Below are positions 8,661-39,136 of a stretch of 64,000 nucleotides of DNA, in pieces. The notes beneath the pieces are model-generated. The model saw nothing but the letters and a program-made list of their open reading frames with translations. It searched no databases and had not been told where the DNA came from. The translations under genes and the position numbers were made by a program. The stretch comes from Alphaproteobacteria bacterium (GTDB lineage: Bacteria; Pseudomonadota; Alphaproteobacteria; Rickettsiales; SXRF01). Numbering within the stretch: the first letter of the stretch is position 1; each line of letters opens with the position of its first letter. The stretch lies in assembly GCA_033763775.1 (NCBI GenBank), contig JANRJW010000010.1, forward strand, positions 90,430-154,429, in the 5' to 3' direction.

Positions 8661-8792
8661 TGTCATCCCGTGCCTGAGCGCACTTGCGCGAGGAACCGAC
8701 ACGGGATCCAGTCGCCGCGGCAAGCGGCGAGAAAGTAATTGGTAGGCTCGCAGACGCTCGCCTGCTGGATTCCCACTGTCGTGGGAATGACA
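8661..8792. repeat. Family C (YGTCATYCC) REP-like element bracketed by 26-bp direct repeats
   Basis: tgtcatcccgtg...cacgggatcca and tggattcccac...gtgggaatgaca ends; tcaagcataaaccgctcccttgatag at both 8634-8659 and 8803-8828. Confidence 0.9.
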
Positions 8793-19608: not shown

Positions 19609-19643
19609 AAACAAAAAACCACCAGCGGCTGGAACCGTGGTGG
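19609..19643 (-). terminator. Intrinsic terminator in the leader of the 18724-19581 gene
   Basis: Minus strand CCACCA-CGG-TTCCAG-CCG-C-TGGTGG followed by TTTTTTGTTT. Confidence 0.75.
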
Positions 19644-19657
19644 TGGATCTCTTGCCG

Positions 19658-19707
19658 CTTTAGCTGGTTGTTTAATGTGCCCGCAATTTGGGTTAAATCA
19701 GCACATT
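19658..19707 (-). ncRNA. SAM-II (SAM-alpha) riboswitch aptamer
   Basis: Minus strand AAUGUGC-UGAUUUAAC-CCAAAUUGCGG-GCACAUU-AAACAACCAGCUAAAG: P1 stem, UGAUUU, UUGC and 3' GCUAAA pseudoknot strand as in SAM-II. Confidence 0.82.
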
Positions 19708-19710
19708 CAC

Positions 19711-19739
19711 ACTATGTGCGGATGGCAGCCCTTTGTCAA
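19711..19739 (-). promoter_or_regulatory. sigma70-type promoter for the riboswitch leader
   Basis: TTGACA-17 bp-CATAGT immediately upstream of the aptamer. Confidence 0.7.
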
Positions 19740-20937: not shown

Positions 20938-20948
20938 ATTTGTCTTTC

Positions 20949-21025
20949 TGTTATCCTGGGCGAGGCGTTAGCCGATTCGAAGGATCTTAAACTGAAAAGA
21001 TCCCTCGGCTACGCTCGGGATGACA
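20949..21025. repeat. Family C element between cbs and metB
   Basis: tgttatcctgggcgag...cgaaggatct / agatccctcgg...ctcgggatgaca; close sibling of 34935-35010. Confidence 0.85.
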
Positions 21026-22396
21026 TTAACCATGTCCTGTCTGTTTGCGCAAATATTGAAGTAAATCAATCGGGGTGATGAGGCCGAGGAAGGCCTCGCC
21101 GTCCATCACAATCGCAACCAACCCGCGCTCGAAAATCGGTAGCAGCTCTTCAAACGGGCGCGATACATCGATGGTGGTGAGGTGCTTCGTCATCGCATCC
21201 GACACTTTCATCGCAAACCCGCCGGGATTGCCGGTGATGCCAAGCAGGATATCCATCTCCGAGATGAGGCCGAGCAGCTTGCCATCCCCCATCACCGGCA
21301 GCTGCGATACATCATACATTTTCATTTTACGGTAGGCGGCCGCGAGCGTATCGGACGGCAGCACGGTGATGGCGTTTTTGGCAGTGTGCGGGCGCGTGAT
21401 GAGGTCGCGCAGGTCGTGCGCTTCGTCTTTCATCACCAGCCCGTGGTCATCCAGCCAGTATTCGTTATAGATTTTCGAGAGGTATTTATTACCCGAATCG
21501 CACACAAAGCTCACCACGCGCTTTTTGGTTTTCTGTGCGCGGCAATAGGCAAGCGCGGCGGCGATCAGCGTGCCGGATGATGAACCGCAGATGATGCCTT
21601 CCTTTTTTAGCACCTCGCGCGCGGTCGCGATCGACTGCGCATCCGAAATCGTGTAGGCATGTTTGACGAAAGCAAGCTCGCAGTTTTTGGGGATGAAATC
21701 CTCGCCGATGCCCTCCACCAGCCAGCTGCCGGCTTCAATCATGACACCATCATTCACATACGGCGCCAGCACCGAGCCCTTGGGATCCGCCAGCACCATC
21801 TCCAGATGCGGCGCGACTTTTGAGAAATAGCGCCCAAGGCCGGTGAGCGTGCCGCCGCTGCCAACGCCGCACACCACGGCATCCACATCATGCTCCATCT
21901 GCTCCCAGATTTCCGGGCCGGTGGAGCGTTCATGCGTGACGGGATTATTGGGGTTTTCAAATTGATTCACATAAAAGCCGCCGCGCTCCGAGGCGATGCG
22001 CTTTGCCATATCCTGATAATATTCCGGGTGGCCAATGCCGACATCCGAGCGCGTCATCACCACTTCAGCGCCGAGCGCCTTTAAGTGAAAAATTTTCTCC
22101 TGGCTCATTTTATCGGGAATGACGAGTACCAGCTTGTAGCCCTTCTGGCTGGCAACCAGCGCAAGGCCAAGGCCAGTGTTGCCGGCAGTCGCCTCCACCA
22201 GCGTACCGCCGGGTTTCAAGCTGCCATCTTTTTCCGCCGCCTCGATCATCGAAAGTGCGATACGGTCTTTGATCGAGCCGCCGGGGTTGTGACTTTCCAG
22301 CTTGAGATAAAGCTCGCAGGGGCCAGTATCCAGATGGTTCACGCGCACCATCGGCGTGCCGCCAATCAGCGATAAAACATTCGTGGCGCTAGGCAT
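21026..22396 (-). CDS. cbs: Cystathionine beta-synthase with C-terminal CBS domains
   Basis: NPGGSIKDR, EATAGNTG, GSGGT, EGIG, C-terminal SQLPV CBS pair; start could be 22417. Confidence 0.92.
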   Translation of the reverse strand: MPSATNVLSLIGGTPMVRVNHLDTGPCELYLKLESHNPGGSIKDRIALSMIEAAEKDGSLKPGGTLVEATAGNTGLGLALVASQKGYKLVLVIPDKMSQEKIFHLKALGAEVVMTRSDVGIGHPEYYQDMAKRIASERGGFYVNQFENPNNPVTHERSTGPEIWEQMEHDVDAVVCGVGSGGTLTGLGRYFSKVAPHLEMVLADPKGSVLAPYVNDGVMIEAGSWLVEGIGEDFIPKNCELAFVKHAYTISDAQSIATAREVLKKEGIICGSSSGTLIAAALAYCRAQKTKKRVVSFVCDSGNKYLSKIYNEYWLDDHGLVMKDEAHDLRDLITRPHTAKNAITVLPSDTLAAAYRKMKMYDVSQLPVMGDGKLLGLISEMDILLGITGNPGGFAMKVSDAMTKHLTTIDVSRPFEELLPIFERGLVAIVMDGEAFLGLITPIDLLQYLRKQTGHG

Positions 22397-22562: not shown

Positions 22563-22637
22563 TGGCGACCCCTACGGGAATCGAACCCGTGTTACCTCCG
22601 TGAAAGGGAGGTGTCCTAACCGCTAGACGAAGGGGTC
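22563..22637 (-). tRNA. tRNA-Glu(TTC)
   Basis: GACCCCT acceptor, CCTCC-CTTTCAC-GGAGG anticodon arm, GGTTCGATTCC, CCA end. Confidence 0.97.
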
Positions 22638-22819: not shown

Positions 22820-23377
22820 ATGATTGCCATGCAATATTCTATCCCGCTGCCTGCTAATTTCGACCCGCAAGGGGTGAGAAGCCGAGTGGAAAGCCGCCGC
22901 GCATCGTTTGATGCGCATGCCGGACTGGTGCATAAATCCTTCCTGTACAATGCTAAAGAGCGCCTTTATGCCCCGTTTTATGTGTGGAAAGATGTCGAGC
23001 AGGCGAGGGATTTTCTGCTCGACGACCTGTTTCATGGCGTGGTTGAAACCTTTAACCGCCACCGCGTGCGCAGCTGGTATGTTGCCAGCATGATTTATGG
23101 GAATCGAGAGGTTTTTACGAGTTTTGCCAGACGCGAGCTGGATATGATTCCGGCGGAAGCAAAGCTCGACGATTTTATGACGCGTGAGCTCGAAGCACAG
23201 CGCGAATTGACGGCGAACGAAGATGTCTATGCCCATACGCTTGCCTTTGACCCTGAACGCTGGGAAATTCTACGCTTCAGCCTGTGGAAAGACAAAAGCA
23301 GCGCCCCGAAATCCGGCAGCGATACGGTCATGGAATACGAAGTGCTGCATGTGAGCGAGCCAGTTAGATTTCCTTAG
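22820..23377 (+). CDS. DUF4865-family protein
   Basis: MIAMQYSIPLPANFD start, YAPFYVW and RFSLW motifs. Confidence 0.75.
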   Translation: MIAMQYSIPLPANFDPQGVRSRVESRRASFDAHAGLVHKSFLYNAKERLYAPFYVWKDVEQARDFLLDDLFHGVVETFNRHRVRSWYVASMIYGNREVFTSFARRELDMIPAEAKLDDFMTRELEAQRELTANEDVYAHTLAFDPERWEILRFSLWKDKSSAPKSGSDTVMEYEVLHVSEPVRFP

Positions 23378-23523
23378 CAGCTTGCTGCTTAGGAAATCAA
23401 CTGCCCCGGCGTAGGCCGGAGCCTAGGCAAATGCAAAATCCCTTAGCAGCTTGCTGCTTAGGAAATCAACTGCTCCGGCGTAGGCCGGAGCCTGAGCAAA
23501 TACAAAATCCCTTAGCAGCTTGC
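23372..23523. repeat. 69-bp tandem repeat (about 2.2 copies) containing decayed family C left ends
   Basis: ccttagcagcttgc at 23372, 23441 and 23510; each full unit has a ccggc-gtag-gccgg hairpin. Confidence 0.9.
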
Positions 23524-23537
23524 CTTGATATGTCACG

Positions 23538-23564
23538 TGGATACCGGCCTACGCCGGTATGACG
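23538..23564. repeat. Family C right end
   Basis: tggataccggcctacgccggtatgacg, reverse complement CGTC-ATACCGGC-GTAG-GCCGGTAT-CCA. Confidence 0.85.
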
Positions 23565-24761: not shown

Positions 24762-25277
24762 ATGACTGCAATGAAGGCCGAAGCGCCACAAGCTGAAAAC
24801 TTTACCATGCGCCGGATCACGCCTGCTGACAACCAGCATATGGCCGATATCGTGCGCCGTGTAATGACCGAGTTCGGCTGCACTGCCGATGGCTTTGCGA
24901 TTCACGACCCTGAGCTGGAGAATCTGTTTGATGCCTATGACCATGCGCGCAGCCGCTATTTCGTCGTGGAAGTGGACGGCGCGGTGGTTGGTGGGGGCGG
25001 TGTCGCGCCGCTTCGTGGTACTTATCAGAATATTTGCGAGCTGCAGAAATTTTATGTGCTGCCTGAGCATCGCGGCCGCGGCTATGGCCGTGCGCTGCTG
25101 GAAGCCTGCCTTGCCTTTGCCCGCGAGCAGAAATTTCAGCGTTGCTATTTAGAAACCGTCGAGCAAATGCAAGCGGCCGACAGCCTTTACCGCAAGGTCG
25201 GGTTTGAACCCATCGAAATGCCGCTGGGTAATACTGGCCACCATGCCTGCGACCGCTGGTATGCGAGAGTGCTGTAA
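24762..25277 (+). CDS. GNAT N-acetyltransferase
   Basis: CELQKFY, RGRGYG, CYLET, LYRKVGF. Confidence 0.9.
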   Translation: MTAMKAEAPQAENFTMRRITPADNQHMADIVRRVMTEFGCTADGFAIHDPELENLFDAYDHARSRYFVVEVDGAVVGGGGVAPLRGTYQNICELQKFYVLPEHRGRGYGRALLEACLAFAREQKFQRCYLETVEQMQAADSLYRKVGFEPIEMPLGNTGHHACDRWYARVL

Positions 25278-25278
25278 C

Positions 25279-25653
25279 TGTCATCCCGGCGAAGGCCGGG
25301 ATCCATGTATGAGGAAGTGTGAGAAATGGATTCGTTTACATCGTCACCAACAAGCCCTTTGGCACGCTTTACATTGGTGTTACTAATAATCTTGTCAGGC
25401 GTATCTGGGAACACAAACAAAAATTGGTAGACGGCTTTACAAAACATTACGGATTGGATCGTTTGGTCTATTACGAAATATGTGATGATATCCAATGTGC
25501 TATAGCACGTGAAAAGCAGATGAAAGAATGGCGGCGAAATTGGAAACTAAGGCAAATCATGGACATGAACCCGGACTGGAAAGATTTATATGACCAGATT
25601 GCATCGTAGATCCGTTATGCATGGCATGGGCCCCGGCCTGCGCCGGGGCGACA
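25279..25653. mobile_element. Candidate autonomous element: GIY-YIG gene between inverted family C ends
   Basis: Left end 25279-25305 tgtcatcccggcgaaggccgggatcca; right end 25627-25653, reverse complement tgtcgccccggcgcaggccggggccca; only the nuclease gene lies between. Confidence 0.7.
25319..25609 (+). CDS. Stand-alone GIY-YIG nuclease (96 aa)
   Basis: FVYIVTN...[33 protein letters not shown]; visibly AT-richer than its neighbours. Confidence 0.93.
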
Positions 25654-25668
25654 ATACCGGATATGCCC

Positions 25669-26979
25669 ATGGATAAAATACGCATCATTGGCGGCACATC
25701 GCTGCGTGGCACCATTCCCATCTCCGGCGCGAAAAACGCGGCGTTGCCACTCATGGCTGCCAGCCTGCTCACCGATGGCAAGCTTGAGCTTGCGAACATG
25801 CCTTACCTCGCTGACATTGTAACCATGGCCAAGCTGCTCGCGCAGCATGGGGTGGCGCTGTCCTTTTCGCCGCAGCCTGGTGGCCGCAGCATGTCGCTTG
25901 CTGCTGGCAATATCCACAATCTGACTGCGCCGTATGAGCTGGTGCGCACCATGCGCGCTTCGGTGCTGGTGCTGGGGCCGCTGCTATCGCGCTTTGGTGC
26001 GGCGAAGGTTTCGCTGCCCGGCGGCTGCGCTATTGGCACACGCCCCATCGATCTGCACCTCAAGGCACTTACCCAGATGGGCGCTGAAATCGATCTGCAG
26101 GGCGGTTATATCCATGCCAAAGTGGCTGGCCGTCTGAAAGGCGCTGACATCACCTTCGAAAAAGTTTCTGTCGGCGCGACCGAAAACCTGCTGATGGCCG
26201 CCAGCCTTGCTGAAGGCGTGACCATCCTTCGCAACGCCGCGCGCGAGCCGGAAGTGACCGATCTGGTGCACTGCCTGCAGGCCATGGGTGCGCAGATTGA
26301 TGGGGCGGGCAGCGATGTGCTGACCATTACGGGTGTGGAACAGTTGCATGGCGCAAGGCACAGCGTGATTGCGGATCGCATTGAAACCGGCACCTACATG
26401 GCGGCCAGCGCTATGACCGGCGGGGATGTCGAGCTTATCCACGCGCGGGCGGATCTGCTTTGTGCGGTGATTGCCAAGATGCAGGAAGCTGGCGTAGAGA
26501 TCACCGAAACGCCGCGCGGCCTGCGCGTGCGGGCGGCAGGCGGCCTTCGTGGCGTTGATATCATGACCGAGCCATACCCGGCATTTCCCACCGATATGCA
26601 GGCACAGATGATGGCGCTGCTTTCCACCGCCACCGGTGCCTCGATGATGACCGAAACCATTTTCGAAAACCGCTACATGCATGTGCCGGAGCTTTCGCGT
26701 ATGGGGGCGAATATTGTGGTGCATGGCTCTTCCGCACTCATTCGCGGCGTGGGCGAGCTGCGCGGCGCGGAAGTGATGGCGACCGACCTGCGCGCCTCAG
26801 TCTCGCTGGTGATTGCGGCGCTGGCTGCCAAAGGTGAGACGATGATTCACCGTGTCTATCATCTCGATCGTGGCTACGAACAGCTGGAAGAAAAGCTCCG
26901 CGCCTGCGGCGCGCAGATTGAGCGCATCAGCGAGCGCCGCCAGACAGGCGCCATGACCGATGCGTCCGAGGCCGCATGA
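25669..26979 (+). CDS. murA: UDP-GlcNAc enolpyruvyl transferase
   Basis: [27 protein letters not shown]; start could be 25663. Confidence 0.97.
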
Positions 26980-27623: not shown

Positions 27624-28923
27624 AAAAATCTTCATCACGCAGCCTGATTTTGAAAAGGCCTTTGGCGCGCTGATCTCTTCGCGCCAGCAGGCAGTGCAGT
27701 CGGTGGCGCCCACTGTGAGCAGCATTGTGTCGCGCGTGCGCGCAGAAGGGGATATTGCCCTGTTTGACTATACGCGCAGGTTTGACCGCTTTGAGCCGAG
27801 CGCCCAGACGGTGGAGGTTCAGCCGCAGGAAATTGCGAATGCGCTTAGCCTCTGCTTACCGGAATTGATGCGCTCGCTCAAAATAGCCTGCGCGCGCATT
27901 CGTGAGTATAGCAAGCAGCAAATGCCGCAGGATCTTGATTATGTCGATGGGGCAGGGGTGCGCCTCGGCCATCGCTGGAGCGCGATCGATCGCGTGGGGC
28001 TGTATGTGCCTGGCGGTCTTGCGGCCTATCCCAGCTCGGTGCTGATGAACGCCGTGCCAGCGAAAGTGGCAGGCGTGAAAGAGCTGATCATGGTGGTGCC
28101 GCATCCGGATGGCAAAACCAACCCGGCGGTGCTGGCGGCGGCGCATGTCGCTGGCGTGGATCGCATCTTTAAAATTGGCGGGGCGCAGGCAGTCGCCGCG
28201 CTGGCTTATGGCACCGCGAGCATTCCCGCCGTTGATAAAATCGTAGGCCCTGGCAACAGCTATGTGGCCGAAGCCAAGCGGCAGGTCTTTGGCAAGGTCG
28301 GCATCGACATGATCGCCGGGCCATCTGAAATTCTGGTGATTTCGGACAATCGCAGCAATCCCGCCTGGATTGCCTCTGACCTCTTGTCGCAGGCCGAGCA
28401 CGATGAAGCGGCGCAGTCCATCCTGATCACCGATGACAGTGCTTATGCGGATGTTGTCCTTGCGGCTGTGGAGGCGCTGCTCGCCACCCTGCCGCGTGAA
28501 GCGATTGCCCGCGCATCATGGCGCAGTCATGGCGCGGTGATCGTGGTTGAAAATCTGCATCAGGCCTGTGAGCTGGCCAACCGTATTGCGCCGGAGCATC
28601 TGGAGCTGGCGCTTTACCAGCCCGAAGAAATTCTGCCGCAGCTGCGCCACGCGGGTGCGATTTTCCTTGGCCGCTACACGCCGGAAGCGATCGGTGATTA
28701 CATTGCCGGCCCCTCGCATGTGCTGCCCACCTCGGGCACCGCGCGTTTTTCTTCCGGCCTGTCGGTGTATGATTTCCTCAAGCGCACCTCCATTGCGGGG
28801 TGCACACCGGCTTCGTTTGCCTCGCTCGCGCCCTATGTGCTCACGCTGGCGGAGAGTGAGGGCTTGGGAGCGCATGCGCTGTCCATTGCCACGCGCAAAG
28901 AAGCCATTTCGGAGGAAAGGTGA
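27616..28923 (+). CDS. hisD: Histidinol dehydrogenase
   Basis: [25 protein letters not shown]; start uncertain. Confidence 0.96.
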
Positions 28924-31938: not shown

Positions 31939-32936
31939 AAATGCGAAAACCCTTTTTTATCTAAAGCCATCTCGCTACCATCTTTATCCAGCACCACCAC
32001 GCCGCCAGCGGCCGTGATCTCGCCGATGCGCATCACAGAGCAGGGTAGCTCCAGCGCGCTCACCTCATGCTGGCTGGTAAAAAGCAGTTCATAATCATCC
32101 CCGCCGGAAAGCGCCGCTTCCAGATGTCCGGGCTGTTTTCTTGCGGCGTCTGACAGCGGCAGTGCTGCAGCATGAATCACCGCGCCCACGCCCGATGCTT
32201 TGCAGATATGCCCAAGATCCTGCACCAGCCCATCGGAAATATCCATGCAGCTGGTGGCGATGCCGCGCAGCTTCATGCCCAGTTCCAGGCGTGGCTGGGG
32301 GAGCAGGTAGCGGGAAATGAGAAATTCCCTCTCCCTTTCAGGGAGAGGGACAGGGTGAGGGTTAGAATGGTTGTAAGGGTTAGATGTATAACCCCCACCT
32401 TTATCCTCCCCCTGAGAGGGGGAGGAAATAAGGGGTAAGCCCAGCGCGCTGTCGCCCAGTGTGCCGGAGACATAAATGCCATCGCCCGGCCTCGCGCCGC
32501 TTCGCCTGAGCGCCGCGCCGCGCGGCGCCAGCCCCATGGCGGTGATAGACAGGGTAAGGTCGTTTTCTGACGAGGTGGTATCCCCGCCCGCGAGATGAAG
32601 GCCAAATTCTTTCTGGTCTGAGGCAAGGCCGAAGGCGAAAGAGGCAAGCCAGTCACCGTCTGCGCGAGGTAGTGACAGCGACAAAAAATAGCAAAGCGGC
32701 TCAGCGCCCATGGCGGCGAGATCGGAAAGATTGGTGCGTAGTAATTTGCGCGCAATCAGCGCTGGCTCTTCGTTTCCTATGAAATGAATGCCCCAGTTCA
32801 TCGCATCCTTGGTGACGATGAGCTGCTGGCCGGCCGGGATATCCAGAATCGCCGCATCATCAGTTAAATTCAGCCCGCCGGGAAAACCAGCCGCAAGCGG
32901 CGCGAAATAGCGATGGATCAGTTCAAATTCATGCAT
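31935..32936 (-). CDS. thiL: Thiamine-phosphate kinase
   Basis: EFELI, DDAA, NLSDLAAMG, GGDT, MDISDGL, GGDDYEL. Confidence 0.96.
   Translation of the reverse strand: MHEFELIHRYFAPLAAGFPGGLNLTDDAAILDIPAGQQLIVTKDAMNWGIHFIGNEEPALIARKLLRTNLSDLAAMGAEPLCYFLSLSLPRADGDWLASFAFGLASDQKEFGLHLAGGDTTSSENDLTLSITAMGLAPRGAALRRSGARPGDGIYVSGTLGDSALGLPLISSPSQGEDKGGGYTSNPYNHSNPHPVPLPEREREFLISRYLLPQPRLELGMKLRGIATSCMDISDGLVQDLGHICKASGVGAVIHAAALPLSDAARKQPGHLEAALSGGDDYELLFTSQHEVSALELPCSVMRIGEITAAGGVVVLDKDGSEMALDKKGFSHF
32325..32428. repeat. Family B dimer in frame in thiL
   Basis: tccctctccct-ttc-agggagaggga and tcctccccct-gag-agggggagga; peptide SSPSQGEDKGGG...NPHPVPLPERE. Confidence 0.9.
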
Positions 32937-34925: not shown

Positions 34926-34934
34926 GGCGTTATT

Positions 34935-35010
34935 TGTCATCCTGAGCGAGCATAGCGAGTCGAAGGATCTTTTGAAAGCATAAGATCCCTCGACTACGCT
35001 CGGGATGACA
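34935..35010. repeat. Family C element at the ribE/ribB junction
   Basis: tgtcatcctgagcgag...cgaaggatct / agatccctcg...ctcgggatgaca; contains the ribE stop. Confidence 0.88.
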
Positions 35011-35580: not shown

Positions 35581-35607
35581 TGTCATCCCGGCTAAGACTG
35601 GGATCCA
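35581..35607. repeat. Solo family C end containing the ribD stop
   Basis: tgtcatcccggctaagactgggatcca. Confidence 0.75.
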
Positions 35608-36612: not shown

Positions 36613-36730
36613 TGTCATTCCCGCGAAAGCGGGAATCCAGTTCTTTTAATAAGACGAAAAATGTCTCCTGACATTTTTCTTTTCTGGATCCCGTGCTTCG
36701 CCGTCTACTGACGGCGTCCACGGGATGACG
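36613..36730. repeat. Family C element between nrdR and ribD
   Basis: tgtcattcccgcgaaagcgggaatcca ... tggatcccgtg...cacgggatgacg; internal aaaaatgtc-N4-gacattttt. Confidence 0.9.
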
Positions 36731-37204: not shown

Positions 37205-37401
37205 TGTCATCCCCGCTTTATGCGGGGATCTAGAGCCCATAGCTCCATTTGAAATTGTGGCTCCAGACCCCCGCGCAAGGCGGGGGTGACGAAAAAACAT
37301 GACCGCATAGGCGGGGATCCTGTAGGTGCCCCCCGAAGTTTGAACAATGTTTGCTATACTCATCATGAACCTCTTACAGGATCCCCGCTTTCGCGGGGAA
37401 T
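37205..37401. repeat. Two adjacent family C elements (37205-37291 and a decayed one at about 37299-37401)
   Basis: tgtcatccccgc...gcggggatct ... agacccccgc...gcgggggtgacg; then gcggggatcctgta ... tacaggatccccgc. Confidence 0.8.
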
Positions 37402-37403
37402 TT

Positions 37404-38699
37404 CTAGTAAATCGGGAACCGTTTACACAGCTCTTCCACTTTGGTTTTCACGGCTTTTTCCACCGCGCTGTTGTCGCCACCTTTCGATAAGCCATCCAGC
37501 ACATCGCCAATCAGCTCGCCGATCTGTTTGAACTCGGCTGTGCCAAAGCCGCGTGTCGTGCCCGCCGGTGTGCCGAGGCGAATGCCGGAGGTGATGAATG
37601 GTTTCTCCGGATCAAACGGAATGGCGTTTTTGTTGCAGGTAAGGCCAGCGCGCTCGAGCGATTCCTCGGCGGCTTTGCCGGTGACTTTTTTGGCGCGCAG
37701 ATCCACCAGCATCAGGTGGTTGTCGGTGCCGCCGGTGGTGATGGCAACACCCCGTTTTGTCAGCGTTTCCGCTAGTATGCGGGCATTATCCACAATCTGT
37801 TTGCCATACGCTTTGAACTCTGGCCTGAGCGCTTCGCCGAAGGCTGCGGCCTTGCCGGCGATCACGTGCATCAGGGGGCCGCCCTGAATGCCCGGGAAAA
37901 TCGCCGAGTTGAATTTTTTGCCAAGCTCGAGGTCGTTGGAGAGAATCATCCCGCCGCGCGGGCCACGAAGTGTTTTGTGCGTGGTGGTGGTCACGACATG
38001 GGCGTGGGGCAGGGGCGAAGGATACATGCCTGAAGCCACCAGCCCGGCGATATGCGCCATATCCACCAGCAGGTAGGCGCCCACTGAATCGGCGATGCGG
38101 CGGAAATGCGCCCAGTCAATCACCCGCGGATAAGCCGAGAAACCAGCAATAATCATTTTCGGTTTGTGTTCTTTGGCAAGGCGTTCCACTTCGTCCATAT
38201 CAATCAGATGGTCGCTCTCACGCACGCCATACGCCACCGCCTTGAACCACTTGCCTGACTGGTTGACCGACGCGCCATGTGTCAGGTGTCCGCCTGCCGC
38301 CAGCGACATGCCGAGGATGGTATCGCCCGGCTGCAGCAGCGCGGTGAACACGCCTTGGTTGGCCTGTGAGCCGGAGTTGGGCTGCACGTTGGCATAGGCG
38401 CAGTTAAATAGCTTGCAGGCGCGCTCGATTGCGAGTTTTTCAGCCACATCCACAAATTCGCAGCCGCCATAATAGCGCTTGCCGGGATAGCCCTCGGCAT
38501 ATTTGTTCGTTAGCACGGAACCTTGCGCATCAAGCACCGCTTTGCTTACGATATTCTCGCTGGCAATCAGCTCGATTTGCGTCTGCTGGCGATGCAGCTC
38601 TTCCTGCATGGAGGCAAACAGTTCGGGGTCAGACTTGGAAAGCGGCGTGGCAAAAAACGGGTTCATCATGGTCTCTTTCTTCATTGCGGCTTGGGTCAT
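37404..38699 (-). CDS. glyA: Serine hydroxymethyltransferase
   Basis: [29 protein letters not shown]. Confidence 0.98.
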
Positions 38700-39136
38700 G
38701 GATTCATTTTCCTTATGCGGGTTTCATGTCTTCCGCCTTCAAAGCGGGTGGTTAAAAATCTCTGTAGACAGTTGCGTGCGGCCGCTTCGCTGATCTGGCG
38801 CGCACCAAGGCACAGCACATTGGCATTATTATGTTGCCGCGAAAGTGCTGCTTGCTCAGTGGTCGAAACCAGTGCCGCGCGGATGTGGGGGTGGCGGTTC
38901 GCCGCAATGGACATGCCGATGCCCGAGCCGCAGATGAGCACGCCAAGCGCGCCAGGATGCTCTTTCATCCAGTCAGCAAGCTTGTGCGCATAGTCTGGGT
39001 AGTCAACGGAGGCTGTTTCCTGTGGCCCAAGATCCAGCACCTCATGCCCCGCCTGCGCTGCATCGGCAAGCAACAACTGCTTGAGAGAAACGCCGGCATG
39101 GTCAGAAGCCATCGCAATCACTGGTAGCGTAGTCAT
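38696..39136 (-). CDS. rpiB: Ribose-5-phosphate isomerase B
   Basis: SDHAG, DYPD, CGSGIG, HNNAN, FEGGRH. Confidence 0.96.

Follow-up and report, generated by a model that had tools for sequence, protein, structure and literature searches.

A GIY-YIG nuclease gene and its flanking hairpins as a single insertion/deletion unit in an alphaproteobacterial genus

Are small nuclease genes enclosed by hairpin repeats mobile elements, or are they tools that the host has domesticated? The locus described here bears on that question, and this is where its value lies. It is found in a stretch of 64,000 nucleotides from an alphaproteobacterium (GTDB lineage Rickettsiales; SXRF01), namely positions 90,430 to 154,429 of contig JANRJW010000010.1 in assembly GCA_033763775.1. 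We refer to this whole stretch as the window, and all coordinates are window positions unless a contig is named. The source genome is labelled G000 and its relatives G001 and so on. Between a GNAT acetyltransferase gene and murA, the window carries a 391-bp cassette made up of an ssn gene, encoding a 96-residue single-domain GIY-YIG nuclease, and two inverted hairpins of the SRM type. Judged from its sequence, the gene very probably encodes a single-stranded DNA (ssDNA) nuclease of the Ssn family with cognate SRM hairpins, which is a known kind of pair. The hairpin-gene-hairpin arrangement is one insertion/deletion unit, inserted between the overlapping GNAT stop and murA start codons. The pairing itself was known before; what is new here is evidence that the whole unit moves. 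The comparative data support mobility of the unit, and the role of the nuclease as its driver stays unproven.

The nuclease, its hairpins and the Ssn family

A first-pass annotation of the window had presented the locus as a candidate new system and had taken CGTC-type repetitive extragenic palindromes (REPs) to have no assigned mobiliser. The system is not new, since both the association and the binding and cutting of ssDNA have been published as Ssn/NTS-SRM (Chenal et al., Nat Commun 2025, PMC11893778), and the statement on CGTC-type REPs is out of date because that paper supplies the nuclease partner. Its main text defines the Neisseria repeat NTS as CGTCATTCCCGCGMAVGCGGGAATCYRG and describes ssnA as a 94-residue single-domain GIY-YIG gene (CDD cd10448, GIY-YIG_unchar_3). 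Purified N. meningitidis SsnA recognises the hairpin solely in its single-stranded form and cleaves about 3 nt 5' of the NTS, and the substitutions Y6A, Y17A and E64A each abolish cutting. Three further homologues, making four in all, act alike on their own repeats and are inactive on double-stranded DNA (dsDNA) and RNA. Among ssnA homologues (more than 75% of the query aligned, E < 1e-10), 71% have NTS-like SRM hairpins in their flanks and 42% have them on both sides. Knockout and complementation in N. meningitidis revealed a 5-fold effect on transformation of NTS-bearing DNA. The Discussion likens NTS-ssnA-NTS to an insertion sequence, to IS200/IS605 and to REP/BIME-associated transposases, and proposes domestication; a toolbox for site-specific ssDNA cutting is also proposed. 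Within the main text, mobility appears as a Discussion hypothesis only, and a term search of it returned no mention of paralogues or excision. Searches of open-access full texts for this pairing returned nothing relevant beyond that paper.

We placed the window protein by comparison with this family. Pfam assigns it to GIY-YIG (PF01541, E 2.1e-15, residues 4-76) and to no further family, and its catalytic residues Y7, Y18 and E65 are invariant in the alignment of all 15 homologues. A tblastn search of a plasmid collection returned two N. gonorrhoeae records of chromosomal size (about 2.17 Mb), with E values of 7e-21 (residues 6-94) and 1e-20. The gonococcal open reading frame (ORF; 589-873 of locus L163, from record NZ_CP119140.1) encodes 94 residues with Y6, Y17 and E64, and we took it as the SsnA orthologue because its length and these three residues match meningococcal SsnA as reported. 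The two proteins are 48% identical over 86 gapless positions (BLASTP, E 5e-31), and Y7, Y18 and E65 of the window protein align with Y6, Y17 and E64. Homology to N. meningitidis SsnA is therefore judged by proxy, via the gonococcal protein. Membership of the family rests on this homology together with a single domain of about 94-100 residues, the catalytic Tyr/Tyr/Glu set, and a left flank (25279-25306) that matches the published SRM motif. A search of PDB sequences identified no solved Ssn structure and returned repeat-summed WD40 matches only, which are spurious.

The arrangement of a 96-residue GIY-YIG gene between two inverted 27-nt hairpins is as the first-pass annotation described it. 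The left hairpin reads TGTCATCCCGGC-GAAG-GCCGGGATCCA and the right one, on the minus strand, TGTCGCCCCGGC-GCAG-GCCGGGGCCCA. Folded as ssDNA, each forms an 8-bp stem with a 4-nt loop, at -9.7 kcal/mol for the left end and -11.8 kcal/mol for the right; shuffled sequences fold at least as well in 1 of 200 cases for the left end and 7 of 200 for the right. A degenerate pattern for the 27-mer has four matches in the window and none in 100 shuffles. Of the five differences between the hairpins, four had been called compensatory, and we find the same: they make up two stem pairs (A-T to G-C and T-A to C-G), and the fifth lies in the loop. The gene is also AT-richer, as annotated, with a GC content of 0.405 against 0.544 for the genome, which is the 1.3rd percentile of 291-bp windows. 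The GTCGCCCCGGC head of the right hairpin recurs beside homologues elsewhere (loci L092 and L155, for example), and an A/G-Y-CCCGGC stem like that of the cassette is found at the closest homologues of the window protein. An Rfam scan of the whole window placed no family on the repeats.

Nuclease and hairpin go together well outside the window. Hairpins were called with a strict detector, which required a GTC[AG][CT] head, an 8-bp stem with no more than one mismatch, a loop of 3-20 nt and a following C, an earlier loose version having been dropped as too permissive (488 matches against 361 in a Markov genome). In G000 (1.87 Mb, 14 contigs, 100% complete), the strict detector finds 134 matches, compared with 19-26 in three Markov shuffles; the published SRM motif has 58, compared with 4-13. 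The genome encodes four Ssn paralogues, and all are bracketed by inward-facing, YGTCAY-headed hairpins, three by the strict detector and one by eye. Each pair has its own stem sequence, as judged by eye. Among G000 ORFs of 80-130 codons, the strict detector places inward hairpins on both sides of just 3 of 2910, and these are three of the four Ssn paralogues; among ORFs of at least 150 codons, 2 of 2258 have them on both sides and 85 on one. We then extended the count to homologue loci from other species and many phyla. Inward-facing hairpins occur on both sides of 58 of the 76 loci with enough flank (from 80), on one side of 11 and on neither side of 7. Control positions, displaced by 700 bp at the same loci, gave 0 of 144 on both sides and 7 of 144 on one, so hairpins are much more frequent beside homologues than at the controls. 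The 28 homologue loci in relatives divide into 13 with both hairpins, 7 with one and 8 with none. The two hairpins of a cassette are usually of the same flavour.

Gene and repeats are also correlated across genomes, a comparison that the first-pass annotation had suggested. The Spearman coefficient between repeat-pattern count and Ssn match count is 0.62 over 31 related genomes, a value that is descriptive only because the genomes are kin. Fifteen of them have gene and repeats, 4 the gene only, 4 repeats only and 8 neither.

Little counts against assigning these pairs to Ssn/NTS-SRM. The right hairpin departs from the published motif at a single position, with G in place of W (A or T), and the motif has no match in the flanks of the remaining three G000 paralogues. 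NCBIfam models gave nothing above cut-off for the window protein. A point against nuclease-driven mobility, and not against identity, is that 4 of the 12 relatives in which Ssn is not detectable still carry repeats: G013 (90% complete, 380 contigs) has 23 and G025 (100% complete) has 9, with no Ssn match at E <= 1e-5 in either. The repeats of these two genomes may be orphans left behind after loss of the nuclease.

The same counts bear on whether the repeats are ordinary REPs of the kind served by RAYT transposases, or chance palindromes beside an unrelated small gene. Their size and intergenic position are REP-like. The Y1/RAYT family (PF01797) has no match in the complete G000 genome, and the same search was positive in 6 of 14 reference genomes used as a control; the heads are YGTCAY, and not GTAG as in REPs. 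Together with the hairpins at homologues against none at displaced positions, and the empty shuffles, these results leave the reading with a negligible probability. We rejected it on the absence of Y1, the ORF-flank counts and the homologue-versus-control counts.

Three further observations concern cassette structure. In one G002 cassette (contig C89, locus L024), both hairpins have a GCCAT head instead of GTCAT, and the matched ends hint that the head co-varies with the nuclease. An Ssn homologue in G027 (contig C8, locus L032) has no stop codon before its 3' hairpin and continues in frame through it into a large glutamate-synthase-like ORF, giving an open frame of 1609 residues, which may be a real fusion or a quirk of assembly or annotation. 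A rule for cassette orientation relative to the neighbouring genes was dropped, as the distribution over 103 cassettes (59 ++, 23 -+, 18 +- and 3 --) is unremarkable for bacterial genes.

Filled and empty sites

We compared the stretch from GNAT to murA with 30 relatives by BLAST. The 391-bp cassette is missing from five of them (G002, G003, G001, G004 and G018), which are the empty GNAT-murA sites that the first-pass annotation had proposed to look for, and the gene is not stably syntenic. In G002, which belongs to the same genus and has GNAT and murA genes 93% and 98% identical to those of G000, the two genes abut (...gtgctaTAATGgataaa / ...gctaTAATGgat...) with the stop codon overlapping the start. 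The junction reads TGATG or TAATG in G003, G004 and G018 and has a 12-nt spacer in G001. From these empty junctions, we take 25278-25668 as the insertion, lying between the TAA of GNAT and the ATG of murA. Positions of the cassette, its parts and other features are listed in Table 1.

Other cassettes behave in the same way, and three of the four in G000 have empty sites in congeners. The gatC-gatA cassette has an empty TAATG site in G002, G003 and G001, and the trpE-trpG cassette an empty ATGA site in G003 and G001. At the trpE-trpG junction, G004 carries a cargo-less doublet of the same hairpin flavour as the G000 cassette, and G002 (contig C53; L062, 2284-2915) carries a 632-bp insert encoding DUF433 (E 6.8e-25) and DUF5615/PIN_10 (E 2.4e-25), a toxin-antitoxin-like pair. 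Since G000 and G002 share 9 nt just before the trpG ATG, this junction has been hit more than once. The fourth G000 paralogue is common to G003 and not to G002.

The reciprocal comparison gives the same picture. Close relatives have 0-7 ssn copies each. The closest sister, G002, has seven cassettes, all at sites other than the four of G000, with aligned flanks 88-98% identical. All seven, together with one from G003 and one from G001, map to G000 sites that hold 0-158 bp. One such site lies within the window (last row of Table 1); in G002 (contig C31, loci L042 and L072), the minus-strand neighbour at this site seemingly starts at an ATG provided by the reverse-complemented hairpin head (CGTCAT = ATGACG). 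A GTCAT/ATGAC start region is present at or close to several of the insertion sites, which could be chance. G002 and G003 share a further cassette, whose site in G000 (C1:37147) is empty. Its hairpin heads are degenerate and its ORF is intact, and the degenerate heads suggest an old insertion that G000 has lost.

Hairpins without cargo are polymorphic between the same genomes. The first-pass annotation had counted cargo-less ends at about ten other loci of the window. The strict detector gives a lower figure: of its eight matches in the window, two flank ssn and the other six fall at five loci, one of them (45222) doubtful. The figure of about ten loci is reached when degenerate or other-flavour copies recognised by eye are added (20938-21030, 23362-23538, 34926-35004, 35581-35607 and 37308-37401). 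Genome-wide, the cassette's own flavour (C10 type) has 13 copies, 2 flanking the gene and 11 without cargo. Among the other flavours for which patterns were made, the C12 type has about 25 copies, the C4 type 4 and 3, and the C2 type about 35 arms. The commonest flavour in G000, GTCATTCCCGCGAAAGCGGGAATCC, fits the Neisseria NTS consensus, and G000 lacks a cognate cassette for the GAAA flavour, of which it has 27 copies. Hairpin pairs within 450 bp of one another are convergent in 31 cases and divergent in 1, and 29 of the 31 convergent pairs are gene-free and span 51-211 bp. Cargo-less inverted doublets occur for at least three of the paralogue flavours (C10, C12 and C2 types). Doublets differ between G000 and G002, as illustrated by the 93-bp doublet of Table 1.

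Two observations concern neighbouring repeats. The 177 bp at 23362-23538, missing in G002, contain two tandem units of about 80 bp, each with a CYCCGGCGTAGGCCGGAGCC hairpin that lacks a GTCAT head; G002 has one different SRM hairpin at this position. A second, unrelated palindrome family of the CTCTCCC...GGGAGAG type (32328-32351, for example) occupies some of the same gene junctions, and G002 has such a repeat (L075) where G000 has the SRM doublet at 34926-35004.

Table 1. Features of the cassette, its neighbours and related repeats in the window
Feature	Position	Strand	Remarks
GNAT acetyltransferase gene, 5' neighbour	24762-25277	+	Pfam Acetyltransf_1, E 3e-21; stop TAA at 25275-25277
Inserted cassette, 391 bp	25278-25668	+	Left hairpin, ssn gene, right hairpin and 15-nt tail; missing from five relatives
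Left SRM/NTS-type hairpin, forward	25279-25305	+	Head TGTCAT, 8-bp stem, GAAG loop, tail CCA; one base after GNAT TAA
ssn gene, 96-residue single-domain GIY-YIG nuclease	25319-25609	+	GTG start, TAG stop; Pfam PF01541; Y7, Y18, E65
Right SRM hairpin, inverted (forward on minus strand)	25627-25653	-	Head TGTCGC, stem GCCCCGGC, loop GCAG
15-nt insertion tail, right hairpin to murA ATG	25654-25668	+	Missing from empty sites
murA (UDP-N-acetylglucosamine 1-carboxyvinyltransferase family), 3' neighbour	25669-26979	+	Pfam EPSP_synthase, E 8e-107; ATG at 25669, start from alignment to relatives
Cargo-less solo SRM hairpin	23538-23564	-	Cassette's own flavour, CGTCATACCGGC-GTAG
Cargo-less solo SRM hairpin	36613-36640	+	GAAA flavour, nearly identical to Neisseria NTS consensus
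Cargo-less convergent SRM doublet, 85 bp	37206-37290		REPIN-like; flavour of gatC-gatA paralogue flanks
Cargo-less doublet, 93 bp	20938-21030		Flavour of trpE-trpG paralogue flanks; missing in G002
Cargo-less solo SRM hairpin	8769-8791	-	GTCATTCCCAC-GACA
Site of reciprocal polymorphism	38664-38708		399-bp Ssn cassette in G002, 45 bp in G000

Elsewhere in the window, a SAM-alpha riboswitch (Rfam RF00521, 40.7 bits; 19639-19714, minus strand) points to an alphaproteobacterium, and a tRNA-Glu gene occupies 22563-22637 on the minus strand. About 1.7 kb beside this tRNA in G002 is missing in G000.

Composition and homology both indicate where the window cassette came from. The Ssn paralogue genes of G000 have GC contents of 0.32-0.41, and the relatives examined hold no orthologue of the window copy within the genus. 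The low GC and the lack of a close homologue in the genus point to a horizontal origin. The closest homologue is 69% identical and comes from another genus, and proteins 74-77% identical are found in metagenome-assembled genomes (MAGs) of uncultured, distant alphaproteobacteria; the insertion therefore seems to have arrived from outside and not from a sister copy. The window protein has no match in a phage collection and matches 33 records of the plasmid collection, with the annotation 'GIY-YIG nuclease family protein' in 20 of the 33 rows. As 32 of the 33 are typed non-mobilizable and several are actually chromosomes or chromids, no mobile vehicle was identified from this collection.

Filled and empty alleles are also what a free-standing GIY-YIG homing endonuclease gene would leave, if it cut dsDNA at empty alleles, repair then copied it in and the hairpins were incidental terminators. 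A match to TIGR01453, a group I intron endonuclease model, points the same way but stays well below threshold (25 bits against a cut-off of 56, residues 4-45), and the 96-residue protein compares with a model of 215 positions and has no DNA-binding domain. Cassettes occupy many unrelated sites, their hairpins co-vary with the protein and also occur without cargo, no T-run follows the stems at the cassette, and phages supplied no match. The characterised homologues, moreover, do not cut dsDNA (main text, PMC11893778). We regard homing of this kind as very unlikely.

Candidate engines of movement

What, then, moves the unit? By analogy with the characterised proteins, Ssn would bind its YGTCAY-headed hairpin only when this is single-stranded and would cleave that strand by hydrolysis, a few nucleotides to the 5' side of the head. 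The cassette hairpins face inward, so the predicted cuts, one on each strand, lie immediately beyond the two ends of the cassette. The insertion boundary lies 2-3 nt 5' of the left GTC head in both clean cases (GNAT-murA and gatC-gatA), not far from where SsnA is reported to cut, about 3 nt 5' of the NTS (main text, PMC11893778). We tentatively propose, with a little less than even confidence, that cassettes and doublets are gained, lost or spread after Ssn nicks transiently single-stranded DNA, and that host replication or repair completes the process. Replication forks and incoming transforming strands would supply the ssDNA. The alternative to nicking-driven spread is a host-serving role in ssDNA restriction or the modulation of recombination, as in Neisseria.

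The proposal can be taken further. It is conceivable, although we incline against it, that Ssn cassettes represent a type of active selfish element for which bacteria have so far provided no demonstrated case. A unit of about 390 bp, with a hydrolytic, ssDNA-specific GIY-YIG nuclease as its sole gene, would then nick the DNA immediately beyond its inverted hairpins and be moved or copied by the replication or repair of the host. SRM doublets would be dependants resembling miniature inverted-repeat transposable elements (MITEs), and each nuclease lineage would keep a private hairpin flavour. Insertion would favour tight gene junctions, several of them with overlapping stop and start codons (TAATG, ATGA) or with a GTCAT/ATGAC start region.

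Further still, Ssn might be the sole 'transposase' of a new class of insertion sequence, with SRM hairpins as its ends and doublets as MITE-like derivatives. The first-pass annotation had leaned this way in proposing an autonomous cassette with non-autonomous copies, by analogy with RAYT/REPIN. The nuclease-hairpin pair and the cargo-less doublets bear out part of that description; an autonomous mobiliser stays unproven, given the hydrolytic enzyme, boundaries that vary over 2-36 nt and paralogues that are 52-59% identical. Much of the comparative evidence is nevertheless what such a transposon would produce. The unit inserts as a whole, at a site with no prior repeat and without flanking foreign DNA, and presence or absence of the whole unit at conserved sites is seen repeatedly. 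Cassette sites have turned over completely between G000 and G002, doublets share the convergent geometry of the cassettes and are polymorphic like them, and a doublet of matching flavour occupies the trpE-trpG junction of G004. The predicted cuts fall at the outer edges, and the family extends across phyla at 55-60% identity. Fixed ends and target-site duplications of constant length, on the other hand, were not found, and to our knowledge no strand-transfer chemistry is known for GIY-YIG enzymes. Near-identical copies within the G000 genome are likewise lacking. The in vivo phenotype reported, in N. meningitidis, is the modulation of transformation, and mobility enters that paper's main text only as the Discussion hypothesis (PMC11893778). 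On balance, a fully autonomous transposon seems doubtful.

Details of the boundaries and of the enzyme class also tell against movement driven by the nuclease in any of these forms. GIY-YIG enzymes are hydrolases that form no covalent intermediate, and are for this reason unable to rejoin strands alone. Boundary-to-head distances are 2 and 16 nt at the window cassette, 2 and 9 nt at gatC-gatA and 4-36 nt elsewhere. Flanking duplications are just as uneven. The window cassette has a direct duplication of at most 1 bp, and its 15-nt tail resembles the GNAT 3' end no more than chance would allow (an equal or better score in 123 of 500 shuffles). The C4 cassette duplicates a gene end at 22 of 26 nt (G000 contig C4, about 28352-28378 and about 28809-28835; 0 of 500 shuffles score as well), and a G002 cassette (contig C39, locus L157; G000 C10:147818-147855) has a 38-bp direct target duplication covering a gene start. 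A possible duplication at trpE-trpG covers about 10 of 12 nt by eye. Duplications that vary from at most 1 bp to 38 bp do not resemble the product of one defined staggered cut. The four paralogues being 52-59% identical to one another, and the closest homologue of the window protein 69-77% identical, there is no sign of recent transposition within G000. Finally, the gonococcal ssnA orthologue has NTS hairpins at 457-484, 875-902 and 950-977 of locus L163 that face outward (minus strand upstream, plus strand downstream). The predicted cuts there fall between hairpin and gene and not outside the unit, so that not every homologue has the inward layout. Allele exchange by homologous recombination is another possible cause of gain and loss. 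Variable boundaries and duplications, a hydrolytic enzyme, an external origin and outward gonococcal hairpins leave room for host repair, template switching and homologous allele exchange as the engine.

A further reading is a domesticated host function. Here, the nuclease would serve the cell, for example by restricting or trimming incoming or replicative ssDNA at the repeats as in Neisseria, the flanking hairpins would be relics or regulators, and differences between strains would arise from homologous recombination and microhomology deletion and not from the enzyme. The 5-fold effect on transformation in N. meningitidis (main text, PMC11893778) agrees with such a role, as do the degenerate heads and intact ORF of the cassette common to G002 and G003. 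The paralogues have kept intact ORFs and invariant catalytic residues despite their divergence, which implies that the protein is under purifying selection, and variable boundaries fit repair-mediated events. Set against this, four diverged paralogues with private flavours in 1.87 Mb, and 0-7 copies in close relatives, look selfish; the genes keep a GC content well below that of the genome; the window copy has no orthologue in the genus; and a benefit from inserting into a translationally coupled TAATG junction is difficult to envisage. We consider domestication, in this form, rather unlikely.

Nicking-initiated movement completed by the host is our working proposal, and the genus offers an unusually clean natural test bed for the question of mobility. 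Sister genomes have four and seven cassettes at entirely different sites, and filled and empty sites are clean in congeners, including exact insertion between overlapping stop and start codons of housekeeping operons (GNAT-murA, gatC-gatA and trpE-trpG). With these sites, their turnover and four coexisting pairs, direct tests become feasible of nuclease-dependent mobility, of cognate specificity and of the choice of target. Each diverged nuclease-hairpin pair is in addition a candidate for the ssDNA-cutting toolbox proposed in the main text of PMC11893778.

Comparison with known systems

Of the known systems, Ssn/NTS-SRM is the closest (main text, PMC11893778). Both have a single GIY-YIG domain of about 94-96 residues and an identical catalytic Tyr/Tyr/Glu set. 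In both, the gene lies between hairpins that agree in head, stem length, loop and tail, cargo-less copies number in the tens, and gene presence correlates with repeat number. The window cassette differs from the gonococcal locus in having inward hairpins, with predicted cuts outside the unit, where the gonococcal ones face outward. A further difference from published Ssn is that a single small genome contains four diverged paralogues, each with a hairpin flavour of its own. Mobility is a hypothesis only in the published main text, whereas the whole unit is documented here as polymorphic for insertion and deletion, for a protein known from sequence.

RAYT/REP/REPIN/BIME systems are similar in layout: a small gene is flanked by inverted hairpin repeats that are also scattered as solos and convergent doublets, and action on single-stranded hairpins is proposed for both. 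RAYTs, however, are HUH/Y1 transposases acting through a covalent intermediate, and G000 has no Y1 gene. REP heads are of the GTAG type, compared with YGTCAY here. RAYTs are usually single-copy and vertically inherited, whereas the cassettes described here turn over between sister genomes.

The 'peel and paste' elements of IS200/IS605 resemble the cassette in being small, in having subterminal hairpins recognised as ssDNA and in lacking long terminal inverted repeats of the DDE type. In IS200/IS605, both cleavages fall on one strand, left and right hairpins differ, and the target is a fixed tetra- or pentanucleotide. The cassette, by contrast, has ends that are inverted copies, cuts predicted on opposite strands, variable boundaries and a hydrolytic enzyme.

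Free-standing homing endonucleases of the I-TevI type share the GIY-YIG fold, the character of a selfish intergenic gene and the existence of filled and empty alleles. Their DNA-binding domain is distinct from the catalytic one, and they cleave dsDNA at a single cognate site, whereas Ssn consists of the catalytic domain alone and its cassettes occupy many unrelated insertion sites.

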